From Candidatus Margulisiibacteriota bacterium (lineage in GTDB: Bacteria; Margulisbacteria; WOR-1; O2-12-FULL-45-9): 17,714 bases of DNA. The DNA lies in NCBI GenBank assembly GCA_043816785.1, contig JBDRHP010000058.1, positions 1-17,714 of the forward strand, given 5' to 3'. Positions 6,001 through 9,000 of the stretch are shown one piece after another. The stretch's first letter is position 1, and the number at the start of each line of letters is the position of its first letter. Position numbers: made by a program.

Positions 6001-9000
6001 AAGAGGTTGCTTTTCGTTTTTTAAGTGTAAGATTATCAGAGCATTAGAAGGCCAGAACTGGAAGATCAGAATATCAGATTTTTCTGATTCTCTGTTTATC
6101 TGATGCTCCAGTTCTGATACTCTGGTAATCTGATATTCTTAAACTATGAAAAGAATTACCATCGTTATAATATTAATTTACTTATCGGGTTTAAGTAACG
6201 CTCTTCCTCAGAAAAGCTACATCCCCATCCCCTTCCTCTGCCAGGCTCCTTTTGCAAACTGGAGCCAGCCCTGGCAGGATGCGTGTGAAGAAGCTGCAAT
6301 TATCATGGCTATTCATTATGTAAAAGGTGATCCGGTTACCCGGGTATCAGGGAATCAGGAAATTTTAGGTCTGGTAGATTTTCAGGTTGAAAAATATGGC
6401 GGGCATTACGATCTTACTGCAGAGCAGACAGCAAAGCTGATAAGAGATTATTATAAGTTTGAGAATGTTGAGGTTCGCTATGATATTACGATCCAGGATA
6501 TCAAGGATGAGCTTGCCAAGGGGAATCCTGTTATTACGCCAATGGCTGGCTGGCTGCTAGGCAATCCTTATTACACGCCACCTGGACCGGTTTATCATTA
6601 TATGGTGTTTAAAGGTTATGATGATCGAACCGGGGAATTCATTACTAATGATATGGGGACCAAGCGCGGCAGGAACTATCGCTATAAATATCAAACTGCT
6701 TATAATGCTATCCACGACTGGACCGGCAGTAAAGCAACTATCACCTCAGGCAGAAAAGCCATGGTTGTGGTAAAATTAGATAACTAACAACACGCTCGCT
6801 ACGCGAGCTACAACTTACAACTAACAACCGGATGTATTATTATTATGAATTCAAATAGTTGTAAGTTGTTAGTTGTAGGGCCCGAAGGGCCCGTGTTGTA
6901 AGTTAGTATGGGCCTGTGGCGCAACTGGATAGCGTATCAGCCTCCGAAGCTGAGGGTTGTGGGTTCGAATCCCGCCAGGCCCATTTTAGAAAGTAGAACG
7001 TAGAGCGTGGAACGTAGGAGGAACAACTATTCCTACGTTCTATTTTCTGCTCTTTATGCTCTACGTTCTTTTGATCTCACCGGTTTTAACCGACTTAATC
7101 AAACCGCTGGTCATCTTTCCGATTTCATTCGCCAAGTCATACAAATAATTGTACTTTTCGTTAGTTATATAATTCAATTTCCAACATGCCTGGATCAATG
7201 GTACACATTCCAGCAGAGAACCTCTGGCAGTATTATAATACTGTCTCTTTTCTTTCCCATGCATTCGGCCTTGTCCCTCAGCAATATTCAGTGGTATCGA
7301 CATGGCTGCGCGGCGGAGCTGATCCTTGATATTCCTGTCCCTTAATAAACCATTAAGCGCGTAAACTGAAACTAAGAACTGCATGGCTTTCTTATAGACT
7401 TCCAGACCCTCAAACAAAAATGGCATTAACCTCACCTCCGGAAAACATGTAGCAATCTTATTGCCAGGTTGCCGGCAGCTGGAAATAGGCAAGTGGGGAT
7501 GATAAAGTGTCGAAATTACGACACTTTTTTTGGTACAATAGGGGATAGATAGTAGAACGTAGATCGTAGAACGTAGAGCGTAGGTGCTATATGGAATGCG
7601 ACAAATCAAAAAATTTGAAAGAGTGTAATTGCGCCTTTGGGCTTTGGTCAAACATTGAGACTTGTCTAATCGGCTAAAATTTTATATAATTACCCAATCG
7701 TCTGATGAAGAAGAATATTAACCAACTTAGAATACTTATCCTGCTGGCCATCGTGGCCTTTTCCGTTTATGTTATCATGCAGCTGCCGATTACCCTGGGG
7801 CTTGATCTGCAGGGCGGGACCCGCTTAGTATTAGAAGGGCAGCCAACTGACAAGGTGCCTTTGTCTGATGATGCCATGGCTGGCGCAGTCGCGGTTATTC
7901 GCAACCGCATTGACGCATTAGGTGTGTCCGAGCCGATCATCCAGCGTAAGGGTAAAGATCAGATCGTGGTTGAACTGCCCGGGGTAAAGGACCCTGAACG
8001 CGCGATCAAGCTCATTGGTGATACGGCAAATTTAGAATTTGTTGAGGCTGAGTGGGCTCCGGCTGACGAATCAAAATTGACACCGATAAAAGTCAAGGAA
8101 TTCTATGGAGAGGAAGCTTACCTGGATAAGGTAAAACTCTTCAGGAATGGCGAGGTGGTCAGCGAAAAACCGATCATACTAAAGAAGGTTGTTTTAACTG
8201 GCGGGCTCTTGAAGGGGGCTTGGCCAGGAGTAGATGAATTCGGGAATCCGGTAGTTGATATTGAGTTCAATTCCGAAGGCGCCAAGACCTTTGCTGAAGT
8301 GACCGGCCGTGCCGTTGGCAGGCCGATCGCTATTTTGCTGGATAAAAAGATTATTTCTGCCCCAAATGTGCGTGAGCCGATCCCCTCAGGCAAGGCTCAG
8401 ATCTCCGGGGATTTCTCTATTGAGGAGGTTCAGGACTTTGTCATTAAATTAAAGGCAGGCGCGCTGCCGATACCTGTTAAACCCATTGAGACCCGCATTG
8501 TTGGCCCTACCCTGGGAAAAGACTCAATTAATAGGAGTAAGGTCGCGGGGCTGATCGGATTTGCGATCATTGCCGCCTTTATGGTCCTTTATTACCGGCT
8601 GCCGGGCTTTTTGGCCGATATCGCGCTGGGGATATACATTGTTGTCCTGCTCGCTGCTCTTTCGCTGCTCCATGCGACTCTGACCCTGCCTGGCATTGCC
8701 GGTATGCTGCTGTCGATCGGCATGGCTGTAGACGCTAATATCATTATCTTTGAGCGGTTAAAGGAAGAGCTGCGCCTGAAGAAAACTATCAGGCTGGCAA
8801 TTGATACCAGTTTTAAACGGGCCTTTTCCGCGATCGTTGACTCAAACGTTACCACGATTATTGCCGCGGCAACCCTTTTCTTTGTGGGGACCGGGACAAT
8901 CAAGGGATTTGCGGTGGTCCTGACCGTAGGTATCGCGGCTTCAATGTTTACCGCGATCGTGATCACCAGGATGTTAATGAGTATAATGGTCGACAGCAAG

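Follow-up and report, generated by a model that had tools for sequence, protein, structure and literature searches.

A PF05635 gene cassette behind tRNA-Arg(CCG) in a Candidatus Margulisiibacteriota genome, a probable counterpart of ORF-bearing 23S rRNA intervening sequences at stable-RNA gene flanks

The PF05635/TIGR02436 family of proteins is very large and several of its structures have been solved; as far as we are aware, its function is not known, and its only described habitats are intervening sequences (IVSs) of 23S rRNA, DGRs, in the form of Avd, and insertions scattered over cas loci. The question raised by the contig studied here (17,714 nt, hereafter the window) is why a gene of this family stands directly behind a tRNA-Arg(CCG) gene. 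The genome-wide survey's note had proposed that such genes are small mobile cassettes that target the 3' flank of tRNA and tmRNA genes. In this study, we find support for mobile cassettes at these flanks from an insertion in the window, from adjacency far above chance and from relocation between RNA genes, and the targeting itself is inferred from placement. Our preferred reading, to which we give a probability of about 0.6, is that the cassette behind tRNA-Arg(CCG) belongs to a non-autonomous, IVS-like cassette lineage specific to the flanks of stable-RNA genes. As parts of this reading, held with the same confidence, the cassette is a self-contained, insulated expression unit; it belongs to a clade of PF05635 cassettes present in many phyla, mostly 3' of tRNA or tmRNA genes and in some cases within tRNA operons; and these cassettes may be regarded, by analogy, as the counterpart of ORF-bearing 23S rRNA intervening sequences.

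The window protein scores 101 bits on the PF05635 profile (cut-off 33.8) and 94.8 bits on TIGR02436 (cut-off 24). Its AlphaFold2 model (pLDDT 94.2) consists of four long helices, and a Foldseek search with this model retrieved 2gsc (TM 0.86-0.90, rmsd 1.3), 2rld (TM 0.75-0.90), Avd 4dwl (TM 0.73/0.82) and the DGR ribonucleoprotein 8ub7; a PDB profile search also returned 2gsc (E 3.9e-23). The protein is thus predicted to be a four-helix bundle like the solved members 2gsc and 2rld, each of which has five chains. The conserved motif given for PF05635 in excerpts of one study, R-x3-S-x3-N-x2-E (PMC3936711), is present: across 37 aligned clade members, S43, N47 and E50 never vary and R39 hardly does. 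The PHROG family 'Avd protein of DGR' matches the window protein at E 1.7e-10, and the NCBIfam Avd model NF033474 gives 22.6 bits against a cut-off of 80, which places the protein outside the Avd equivalog. The window gene has no match in the PADLOC defence-system library. Between family copies dN is 0.09-0.30 with dS saturated, a pattern from which the protein is judged to be under long-term purifying selection, that is, functional. Like Avd, it probably acts as an oligomer that binds structured nucleic acid.

Table 1. Features of the tRNA-Arg(CCG) locus and of further family copies in the same genome; positions count along the window
Feature	Position	Strand	Remarks
Second window copy, truncated by contig start	1..375, including upstream parts	-	match 12-182; ATG at 215
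ORF-less hairpin directly 5' of the tRNA	6781..6905	+	inverted repeat I1
tRNA-Arg(CCG)	6910..6983 (Rfam RF00005, 66.7 bits, L002:1305-1378); 6909-6984 (ARAGORN)	+	no encoded CCA
Whole cassette	~6986-7590		~600 nt; begins 3 nt behind tRNA-Arg(CCG)
tRNA-proximal hairpin	6987..7069	.	heptamer array 6987-7017 (GTAGAAC/GTAGAGC type) and inverted copy 7033-7069
PF05635/TIGR02436 gene	7061..7426	-	121 aa and stop; Avd-like fold
Ribosome-binding site GGAGGTGAGG	7430..7439	-	3 nt upstream of ATG at 7426; read from sequence
Sigma-54-type -24/-12 element TGGCAATAAGATTGCT (GG-N10-GC)	7451..7466	-	40 nt before start codon
Palindromic hairpin AAAGTGTCGAAATTACGACACTTT	7504..7527	.	A run and T run at its sides; repeat I12
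Distal heptamer array	7546..7590	.	repeats D1, I3, I7, I8; far insertion boundary
Remnant of small Cys-rich ORF	7592..7678	+	28 codons; boundary marker outside the cassette
secD promoter TTGTCT-17-TATAAT	7662-7690		secD start 7705
Copy at tRNA-Leu(TAG)			gap 108 nt; convergent
Copy at tRNA-Tyr(GTA)			gap 131 nt; convergent
Copy at tRNA-Glu(CTC)			same strand; decayed copy

The gene is convergent with tRNA-Arg(CCG), and its stop codon lies 76 nt beyond the 3' end of the tRNA (Table 1). Rfam finds no rRNA at the locus, which lies between tRNA-Arg(CCG) and secD and not in a 23S helix; across 32 loci, Rfam at gathering thresholds reports tRNA and tmRNA only, with no known RNA family in the spacers. 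The periodic repeats that had been noticed on both sides of the window gene are real and consist of inverted and direct repeats (D1, I3, I4, I7, I8, I11). Between the 3' end of the tRNA and the stop codon of the gene, repeats D1, I4 and I11 make up a hairpin that folds at −36.6 kcal/mol (z −5.79) and could act as a terminator in both directions. A homologue of this hairpin stands behind tmRNA in L030/L266, and in L287 it stands behind tmRNA without the gene. The distal array repeats 6987-7017 directly (31 nt, 90%) and 7033-7069 in inverted orientation, and past it homology to empty sites starts again. Arrays 7033-7069 and 7547-7582 are complementary and pair in both the MFE and the centroid fold of the minus strand, in which the whole unit folds no better than shuffles do (z −0.72). 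The sigma-54-type promoter sits inside this long-range stem, so that the gene's own mRNA would lack the 5' arm and the enclosing stem may not form.

It seems that the cassette carries a promoter of host type. The strict sigma-54-type motif lies upstream of 36 of 137 family copies. The genome holds 40 such sites against 12.4 expected from base composition, together with rpoN (C24:1786-2241) and three to four activator (bEBP) genes. From the motif (TGGCA-N6-TTGCW), its distance to the start codon and the presence of rpoN, we predict a sigma-54-dependent promoter in the cassette; seven of the 40 sites precede family genes, and the predicted sigma-54 promoters of this genome would thus partly drive PF05635 genes. 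Purifying selection and a promoter of this type suggest that the gene serves the cell in some way. A palindrome upstream of the cassette's own promoter is called terminator-like on the plus strand, and other family copies show related palindromes, followed by T runs, ahead of the promoter. Its reading as an activator site (TGT-N10-ACA) was rejected, the strict form GTCG-N6-CGAC being found in only 6 of 36 sigma-54-type copies and a generic palindrome test finding 3 of 36; no binding site for an activator was identified. Since a T run follows in relatives and the call in the window is terminator-like, we read the palindrome as a putative terminator, and it may serve as an insulator.

That the cassette was inserted follows from a comparison of 30 secD loci (29 relatives and the window): in eight of them only 35-65 nt separate tRNA-Arg(CCG) from secD and no family gene is present; the corresponding distance in the window is 721 nt. 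Because the tRNA is so close to secD in these eight relatives, the ~600 nt of the cassette are best taken as an insertion. Of the small Cys-rich ORF beside the distal boundary, one relative (L143) has an intact version of 62 aa in the interval from tRNA-Arg to secD. Comparison of the window junctions with the empty sites revealed no target-site duplication, and among the contigs of four DNA runs, in which rare variants would be lost, no joint skips the cassette.

Ten family matches were found in this genome, eight of them full-length, one cut by the contig start and one decayed (C30:3301-3621, with two TAG and one TAA in frame), in keeping with the nine genes and one decayed copy counted in the genome-wide survey's note. 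Four of the ten lie on the 3' side of a tRNA (Arg-CCG, Leu-TAG, Tyr-GTA and Glu-CTC), as that note had stated, and its estimate that about 2% would be expected by chance is borne out by random 360-bp segments, which fall at most 350 nt from a tRNA or tmRNA gene of this genome in 1.85% of placements. The best within-genome protein pair has 55% identity. The statement that the genome has no DGR likewise stands: its only reverse transcriptase is of the group II intron type (RVT_1 + GIIM, contig C20).

Other figures of the note had to be revised across the order. Matches occur in all 31 genomes by the Pfam model and in 30 of the 31 by the window protein, where 25 of 31 had been given. The reported rate of in-frame stops (13/55) was too high, the counts being 4 of ~155 Pfam matches listed and 11 of 93 protein matches, several of the latter being single stops that look like the gene's own stop codon. 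Our order sample comprises 148 copies, with 4 listed and 23 unlisted Pfam matches left out. Thirty-two of these copies, against about 2% expected, adjoin a tRNA or tmRNA gene, 24 on its 3' side (9 of them convergent) and 8 on its 5' side; the preference for the 3' side therefore holds for three quarters of the cases, not for the 16 of 17 claimed. In a tree of family copies (quick IQ-TREE with SH-aLRT; FastTree was also used), adjacency to tRNA or tmRNA is found in 27 of the 37 rows of one clade (SH-aLRT 98) versus 2 of the 98 rows elsewhere. The link is a property of one clade and not of the whole family. One subclade is located in tRNA operons or 5' of a tRNA, and 10 of the 37 members of the clade have no tRNA nearby. 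Only one 93% identical pair, two copies ~3.8 kb apart on one contig, was found in the 31 genomes, and other within-genome copies share at most 55-75% protein identity.

The association extends beyond the order. A search with an 8-sequence alignment yielded 80 cross-phylum loci, of which 46, against about 2% expected by chance, lie at most 350 nt from a tRNA or tmRNA gene, all 46 on its 3' side (34 on the same strand, 96-265 nt downstream, and 12 convergent); once the Margulisbacteria-like loci L181-L191 and L249 are dropped, 39 of 68 are adjacent. The RNA genes were confirmed by Rfam in all 20 loci checked, and the neighbours include about 20 different anticodons and tmRNA. The other 34 of the 80 loci have no nearby tRNA, about five of them being too near a contig end to judge. 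Relocation is visible in the window copy itself, which shares 75% protein identity with a copy behind tmRNA (L030); DNA homology between these two runs from the promoter to within 4-12 nt of the RNA gene. tRNA identity also changes among close relatives. Copies that stand at different tRNAs have diverged to saturation at synonymous sites, and on these divergences the movement is judged to be old, with no sign of recent transposition. We found no paper tying the PF05635 family to tRNAs.

Flanking repeats are common in the family, with a lag-7 periodicity in the flanks of its genes. In 96 of 133 copies the upstream flank has at least three 7-mers in common with the reverse-complemented downstream flank, compared with 733 of 2660 mismatched pairs. 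RNAduplex on 220-nt flanks also paired matched flanks better than mismatched ones (24/132 below the first percentile), and we relied on the k-mer test because the duplexes over-extend. The spacers between RNA gene and cassette gene fold at a median z of −3.84, with 61 of 75 below −2; the other tRNA 3' flanks of this genome have a median z of −0.71, with 6 of 28 below −2.

It is conceivable, though in our view unlikely, that the heptamer-array hairpins are the true residents of tRNA flanks, either MITE-like or as processing or terminator structures of tRNA operons, with the four-helix-bundle gene as optional cargo, in which case the tRNA link would belong to the hairpins. Heptamer arrays are indeed common genome-wide (29 strict arrays) and not specific to cassettes, and an ORF-less hairpin stands directly 5' of the very tRNA studied here. 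Its two 48-nt arms consist of ACAACTN heptamers and each contain a small G+C hairpin; the loop between them measures 29 nt, and the element folds at −54.1 kcal/mol (z −7.44). It is absent from three relatives (L144, L145, L149) in which the stop of the peptidase gene abuts the tRNA, and its arms align to arms that flank family genes in L050, L026, L049 and L062. Hairpins of like make without an ORF occur in this genome at tRNA-Val, at tRNA-Pro (two) and in a Gly-Pro spacer, the ACAACNNACAAC motif has 4 of its 12 clusters in this genome abutting a tRNA 5' end, and in one genome (G008) the hairpin alone stands behind tmRNA, at the place that the gene occupies in a congener (G009). Scoring crude intergenic gaps of this genome for lag-7/8 arrays, a measure not sensitive enough for degenerate ones and given no weight here, picked out 2 of 18 tRNA-abutting gaps versus 8 of 328 others. 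However, the tRNA link tracks the protein clade and persists across phyla despite repeat units that differ between loci, clades elsewhere in the family are not at tRNAs although their arrays are just as good, and the ORF-less hairpins are explained as easily by remnants after gene loss.

Placement might instead reflect function, not mobility, with the protein working on tRNA or tmRNA or their precursors (e.g., in processing, protection or quality control) and kept near RNA genes for co-expression. The co-oriented downstream position of most adjacent cross-phylum copies, the strong purifying selection, the host sigma-54 promoter and a fold shared with Avd, which is part of an RNA-protein complex (8ub7), agree with this. 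We consider it quite unlikely, given that neighbours span so many anticodons and switch between close relatives, that a good share of them (12/46 and 9/24) is convergent, that the site is empty in eight relatives without sign of harm, that decayed copies occur and that most of the family resides away from tRNAs. A further alternative, that larger integrase-borne islands or prophages were deleted except for an edge that contains the gene, draws on the fact that 3' ends of tRNA and tmRNA genes are classical sites of tyrosine integrases. In L192 (67 nt, 94%), L236 (19 nt) and L090 (22 nt) the gene lies between direct repeats that begin within the T-loop and take in the 3' end of the tRNA, some distal neighbours are of mobile type (Bro-N, ORF6N, rve, HNH), and another small element with a tmRNA-end repeat is present in the order. 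Such tRNA-end repeats occur in only 3 of 87 RNA-gene/cassette pairs, a fourth hit being another tRNA, and at the far boundary of the window cassette the best match to the tRNA 3' end is 9 of 18 nt. The L192 repeats are only ~540 nt apart and the window insertion comprises ~600 nt in all. None of 64 distal ORFs of relatives has a phage-integrase domain, most being housekeeping genes; five genomes with long contigs have no integrase near the cassette on its distal side, the one hit nearby (~15 kb, L205) lying on the tRNA's upstream side and the rest on other contigs or far away. The cassette has no recombinase or nuclease, as the genome-wide survey's note had it, and no reverse transcriptase lies in or near it; two Xer-like tyrosine recombinases, on other contigs, are the only ones of this genome. 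A tblastn search of the window protein against 50,697 phage records (E<=1e-5) and an IMG/VR scan with the 8-sequence alignment found no relative. We therefore regard an island origin as highly improbable.

The cassette is most readily compared with ORF-bearing 23S IVSs, such as that in helix 45 of Coxiella burnetii with S23p and those of Leptospira. Both have a gene of the PF05635 family, a length of ~0.4-0.6 kb, complementary terminal repeats that in IVSs can form a long stem and in the cassette may do so, a place in a stable-RNA transcription unit, a sporadic distribution and ORF-less versions. According to the portions of the literature consulted, it has been suggested that the IVS ORF contributes to mobility (PMC4990558, PMC11270868), and known IVSs are described as selfish elements that have inverted repeats at their ends and are cleaved by RNase III (PMC4990558), an enzyme whose gene is present in this genome. 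IVSs lie in rRNA helix 9, 25 or 45, whereas the window cassette lies behind a tRNA, and its relatives behind tmRNA; its arms are arrays of ~7-nt repeats, and the window copy is antisense to the tRNA, with its own sigma-54-type promoter and putative terminators. The Avd of DGRs shares the fold, but the window gene has no adjacent reverse transcriptase, template repeat or variable repeat. Integrase-borne islands have the class of site in common with it, the 3' end of a tRNA-like domain, but the cassette measures ~0.6 kb, has a single gene and lacks an integrase, and most copies lack the tRNA-end repeats seen in three of its relatives. The inverted arrays recall a MITE-type transposon, but target-site duplications and near-identical copies were not found. 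Correia/NEMIS and ERIC elements are short intergenic RNase III-processed hairpin MITEs that form long hairpins in transcripts, as these arrays would, and cyanobacterial STRR are tandem heptamer units, also found in relatives of the cyanobacterial lineage; we know of no gene of the PF05635 family and no tRNA-flank preference in any of them. The tRNA-targeting retrotransposons TRE of Dictyostelium and Ty3 of yeast use tRNA flanks as safe sites in gene-dense genomes, as stated in part of the cited work (PMC5006619). The genomes considered here are dense too (1.1-1.9 Mb), but TRE and Ty3 are retroelements that move autonomously and recognise the Pol III machinery, whereas the cassette is bacterial and encodes no enzyme.

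For an IVS-like cassette lineage we propose that recombination functions supplied in trans would bring the unit to the end of the tRNA-like domain or keep it there. One candidate is a recombinase whose action extends from the T-loop to the 3' end, as suggested by the three loci with tRNA-end repeats; another is recombination anchored by homology in the arrays and the conserved end of the tRNA. Terminal hairpins might make the insertion harmless through transcription termination or through RNase III cutting in the tRNA precursor, and the ORF-less hairpins found beside other tRNAs would be what remains once the gene is lost. Part of the placement could be due to selective retention and not to targeting. 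A much broader view, which we put forward with considerable doubt, is that PF05635 cassettes are one ancient class of protein-assisted mobile elements colonising stable-RNA genes bacteria-wide (rRNA helices, tRNA/tmRNA flanks and operon spacers), in which an Avd-like oligomer would recognise its own heptamer hairpins and the T-arm/acceptor end and recruit host recombination or repair, the arrays acting as recognition sites, terminators and RNase III stems. If this were true, rRNA intervening sequences, intergenic heptamer repeats and the PF05635 family would be three faces of one system.

The cassettes point to a type of small element beside stable-RNA genes that has not been described before. 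The flanks of tRNA and tmRNA genes would be a second and far more accessible stable-RNA habitat for PF05635, with empty sites and ORF-less derivatives, and cultivable carriers such as Bdellovibrio make it possible to test the nature and movement of IVSs, the role of the heptamer repeats and the ligand of the protein. Programs that call genes or find islands will come across these cassettes beside tRNA genes. The window itself holds a second copy, at the contig start, with a ribosome-binding site, heptamer-like leader arrays (228-292), a sigma-54-type element (301-316) and a palindrome (~355-375) upstream of the gene.

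Here we show that the placement of four-helix-bundle genes of the '23S rRNA IVS protein' family (PF05635/TIGR02436; IVS, intervening sequence) in the flanks of tRNA and tmRNA genes, which the genome-wide survey's note had reported, is confirmed and generalises through the order and across phyla. In the window, the 3' end of tRNA-Arg(CCG) lies 76 nt from the stop codon of the family gene, and the two genes are convergent. The encoded protein scores 101 bits with PF05635 (23S_rRNA_IVP; cut-off 33.8), 94.8 bits with TIGR02436 ('four helix bundle protein') and 22.6 bits, below the cut-off of 80, with the NCBIfam Avd model. 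An AlphaFold2 model built with 37 relatives in the alignment predicts four long helices (pLDDT 94.2); Foldseek places this model closest to 2gsc (TM 0.86-0.90) and then to 2rld, followed by the DGR protein Avd (4dwl, TM 0.73/0.82) and a DGR ribonucleoprotein (8ub7). The Pfam family has been linked to Avd (PMC10053308).

The source genome (1.53 Mb, 106 contigs, 87% complete) has ten family matches, as the survey had counted: eight are full-length, one is cut (12-182, at the start of the window's own contig) and one is decayed, the three stops of this pseudogene (C30:3301-3621) being two TAG and one TAA. The claim that four of the ten lie 3' of a tRNA is likewise borne out. Three are convergent, with gaps of 76 nt (Arg-CCG), 108 nt (Leu-TAG) and 131 nt (Tyr-GTA), and the decayed copy is on the same strand as its Glu-CTC neighbour; a random 360-bp segment falls within 350 nt of one of the genome's 32 tRNA/tmRNA genes in 1.85% of placements. 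The statement that the genome lacks a DGR stands because its sole reverse transcriptase is of the group II intron type, with a maturase domain, and is located on another contig. This reverse transcriptase (RVT_1 + GIIM; locus L178, C20:65148-68786) is encoded about 1 kb upstream of a further family gene (locus L007), and a GNAT acetyltransferase gene separates the two.

All 31 genomes of the order have Pfam matches to the family, at least 178 in total. Our sample of the order comprised 139 loci with 148 copies, leaving out 4 listed and 23 unlisted matches, and 32 of these copies are found within 350 nt of a tRNA or tmRNA gene. The 3'-side placement that had been proposed stands for 24 of the 32 (15 same strand and 9 convergent, 4 of the latter behind tmRNA) and fails for the remaining eight, which are on the 5' side, all co-oriented with the RNA gene, three of them between two tRNAs. 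In a quick maximum-likelihood tree built from 135 full-length copies, with SH-aLRT as its support measure, 27 of 29 adjacent rows fall in one clade of 37 rows (SH-aLRT 98); the clades outside it, an internal control treated by the same method, hold only 2 adjacent rows among 98.

The window protein was aligned with its seven nearest relatives, and a search of one-genome-per-species contigs with this alignment gave 80 loci, from Bdellovibrionota, Myxococcota, Planctomycetota, Nitrospirota, Omnitrophota, Elusimicrobiota, Bacillota, Desantisbacteria and others. In 46 of these the family gene has a tRNA or tmRNA gene within 350 nt and without exception lies 3' of it, on the same strand in 34 cases and convergently in 12; one further locus has an RNA gene at 523 nt, and about five of the 34 neighbourless loci are too near a contig end to be judged. 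The proportion is 39 of 68 once 12 Margulisbacteria-like loci (L181-L191, L249) are removed. Because kin are not independent, these figures are counts and not P values. Of the cross-phylum loci, 20 were checked with Rfam, which upheld the RNA genes in every one and detected no other family in their spacers.

The anatomy of the cassette, which extends over about 600 nt, is given in the table. On the minus strand, the left-end hairpin is followed in order by the gene, the ribosome-binding site, the sigma-54-type element, the palindrome and the second array.

Features of the tRNA-Arg(CCG) locus and of the second family copy in the window
Feature	Position	Strand	Remarks
ORF-less element	6781-6905		stem with two side hairpins; -54.1 kcal/mol, z -7.44
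tRNA-Arg(CCG)	6909-6984 (ARAGORN), 6910-6983 (Rfam)		sole tRNA ARAGORN detects in window
Left-end heptamer array	6987-7017		
Inverted copy of left array	7033-7069		
Family gene, 121 aa	7061-7426	minus	opposite to tRNA-Arg(CCG)
Ribosome-binding site		minus	GGAGGTGAGG
Sigma-54-type element	7451-7466	minus	TGGCAATAAGATTGCT; fits -24/-12 consensus (GG-N10-GC)
Terminator-like palindrome	7504-7527		A run and T run at its sides
Second heptamer array	7546-7590		
Second family copy	1-375, ATG at 215	minus	gene cut by contig start
Heptamer-like arrays, second copy	228-292		in leader between sigma-54-type element and ribosome-binding site
Sigma-54-type element, second copy	301-316		
Palindrome, second copy	about 355-375		

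The left array and its inverted copy form a predicted hairpin of -36.6 kcal/mol (z -5.79). The second array is a direct repeat of the first (31 nt, 90%) and is complementary to 7033-7069, with which it pairs when the whole unit is folded, in the MFE and the centroid structure alike. Such repeats recur across the family. In 96 of 133 copies, versus 733 of 2660 mismatched flank pairs, at least three 7-mers of the upstream flank also occur in the downstream flank once the latter is reverse-complemented. Sequence 600-700 nt away lacks the periodicity seen in the flanks at lag 7 (and lag 14), and the repeat units vary from copy to copy. Across phyla the order of parts is conserved (tRNA end, palindromic hairpin, hairpin of 7-8-nt repeats, gene), and in 15 of 17 loci inspected by eye a perfect A/T-flanked palindromic hairpin begins 0-2 nt past the tRNA end. 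Measured against shuffles, spacers between RNA gene and cassette gene have a median z of -3.84 (61 of 75 below -2), compared with -0.71 (6 of 28) for the regions 3' of the 28 remaining tRNA/tmRNA genes in the source genome.

A strict sigma-54 motif precedes 36 of 137 family copies in the order. The source genome has rpoN, three to four activator genes and 40 sigma-54-type sites where base composition predicts 12.4; an extended form, TGGYAATRANNTTGCT, occurs at about 21 sites, mostly 20-45 nt before a ribosome-binding site. Since seven sites, one third of those with the extended motif, precede family genes, the family may form a large share of the organism's predicted sigma-54 regulon. No activator-binding site was identified.

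Judged from a comparison of 30 loci of the order found with the SecD N-terminus, the cassette in the window is an insertion. Eight of these loci lack a family gene and have only 35-65 nt from the end of tRNA-Arg(CCG) to the start of secD, and in three of the eight the peptidase stop codon abuts the 5' end of the tRNA; the corresponding distances in the window are 721 nt and 121 nt. The window becomes homologous to the empty sites again at the secD promoter (TTGTCT-17-TATAAT, 7662-7690). Between the cassette and this promoter lies a 28-codon remnant (7592-7678) of a small Cys-rich ORF, which is intact between tRNA-Arg and secD in one relative (G003, L143; about 62 aa, several CxxC-like pairs). 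Taken together, the empty sites, the restart of homology and the ORF remnant put the insertion at about 6986-7590. In another relative (G001:C5, L148/L084) tRNA-Arg is missing from the space upstream of secD, and a family gene belonging to a different clade is present there; the same intergenic site has thus been used twice, by different family lineages. Contigs of five relatives break 180-300 nt upstream of secD (L146 in G010, L141 in G011, L152 in G021, L159 in G026, L160 in G019), which would fit a repeated sequence, tRNA or cassette, that assemblers could not cross.

We favour, with a probability of roughly 0.6, the reading that the cassettes are a non-autonomous, insulated, IVS-like lineage that occupies the flanks of tRNA-like genes as its niche, with placement by recombination at the tRNA end, trans-acting or homology-driven, and with the ORF-less hairpins at tRNAs as putative remnants of the lineage. 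In the literature on the family, IVS/S23p and Avd, supplements aside, we found no paper linking the family to tRNA or tmRNA genes. PMC4990558 treats the Coxiella IVS as selfish and describes its terminal stem, 28 bp long, as cleaved by RNase III; it cites the idea of the ORF as a mobility component, and its main text does not use the word tRNA. Family genes are also reported wedged into cas loci (PMC3936711) and in rRNA insertions of CPR bacteria, with ORF-less versions alongside (PMC11270868). With regard to placement, L192 has a 67-nt direct repeat (94%) that begins at GAATCC in the T-loop and takes in the tRNA end together with the hairpin and array, its second copy lying 13 nt past the stop codon, and T-loop-type repeats are also found in L236 (19 nt) and L090 (22 nt). 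On their sequence, these repeats are a signature of recombination within the T-loop-to-3'-end segment, the source of which could be a trans-supplied recombinase or homologous exchange on the conserved tRNA end. Among 87 RNA-gene/cassette pairs, only four have a significant repeat of the tRNA's final 18 nt behind the gene, and in one of the four that repeat is simply another tRNA.

The architecture of the ORF-less element at 6781-6905 also abuts the 5' ends of tRNA-Val and two tRNA-Pro genes and a Gly-Pro spacer in the source genome; its core motif forms 12 clusters there, four within 60 nt of a tRNA, all four on the 5' side. The arms of the same element align to arms that bracket tRNA-flanking family genes in L050, L026, L049 and L062. 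A family gene stands behind tmRNA in 4 of 27 analysable genomes, and in G008 the tmRNA 3' flank has the hairpin alone, where the congener G009 has the gene. Copies at different tRNAs have saturated synonymous sites with dN of 0.09-0.30 (dN/dS 0.04-0.16 where computable); neighbours across phyla comprise about 20 anticodons plus tmRNA, and tRNA identity differs between close relatives (Gln/Met, Arg/Leu, Asp/His, three Ser isoacceptors; FastTree, 121 sequences). Within a genome, copies are at most 55-75% identical in protein, save one 93% pair on one contig. This divergence and the dS saturation speak against ongoing mobility and, together with the low dN, show that the protein is maintained by selection and that relocations are old. 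Of the alternative readings, it is rather unlikely that the hairpins, rather than the gene, are the residents of tRNA flanks, and a functional partnership of the gene with tRNA or tmRNA appears improbable. That the gene is a remnant of integrase-borne islands is very improbable. In five long-contig genomes one integrase match occurs near a cassette (about 15 kb, L205), on the upstream side of the tRNA, and the remaining matches are located on different contigs or far away from the coordinates listed for the cassette. The 64 ORFs (at least 90 aa) on the far side of the gene in tRNA-adjacent cross-phylum loci are mostly housekeeping, with a few of mobile type (Bro-N, ORF6N, rve, HNH) and none with a phage-integrase domain. 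The survey's remark that the cassette carries no recombinase or nuclease agrees with our results: nothing enzyme-like was found in it, and the only tyrosine recombinases of the source genome are two Xer-like proteins.

Other repeat elements are present in the same genomes. Two more long, ORF-less periodic-repeat hairpins occur in the window at 1000-1190 and 1340-1455; one follows a macro-domain gene, and the other, which is made of AATGACT units and stands just ahead of an fpg/mutM-like gene, is similar to the sequences flanking family genes L007, L091 and L115. A lone AAATCCG-type array is found at 14815-14848, and strict lag-7 arrays in the source genome total 29. Directly behind tmRNA in three relatives (L265 in G028, L277 in G017, L280 in G015) there is a different element of about 105 nt, in which CCCGACG / CGTCGGGA hairpins surround an A+T-rich core and the end repeats the final ~20 nt of tmRNA, in the manner of a miniature integrated element. 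A similar sequence is located behind tRNA-Ala(TGC) on the rRNA spacer contig (C26) of the source genome.
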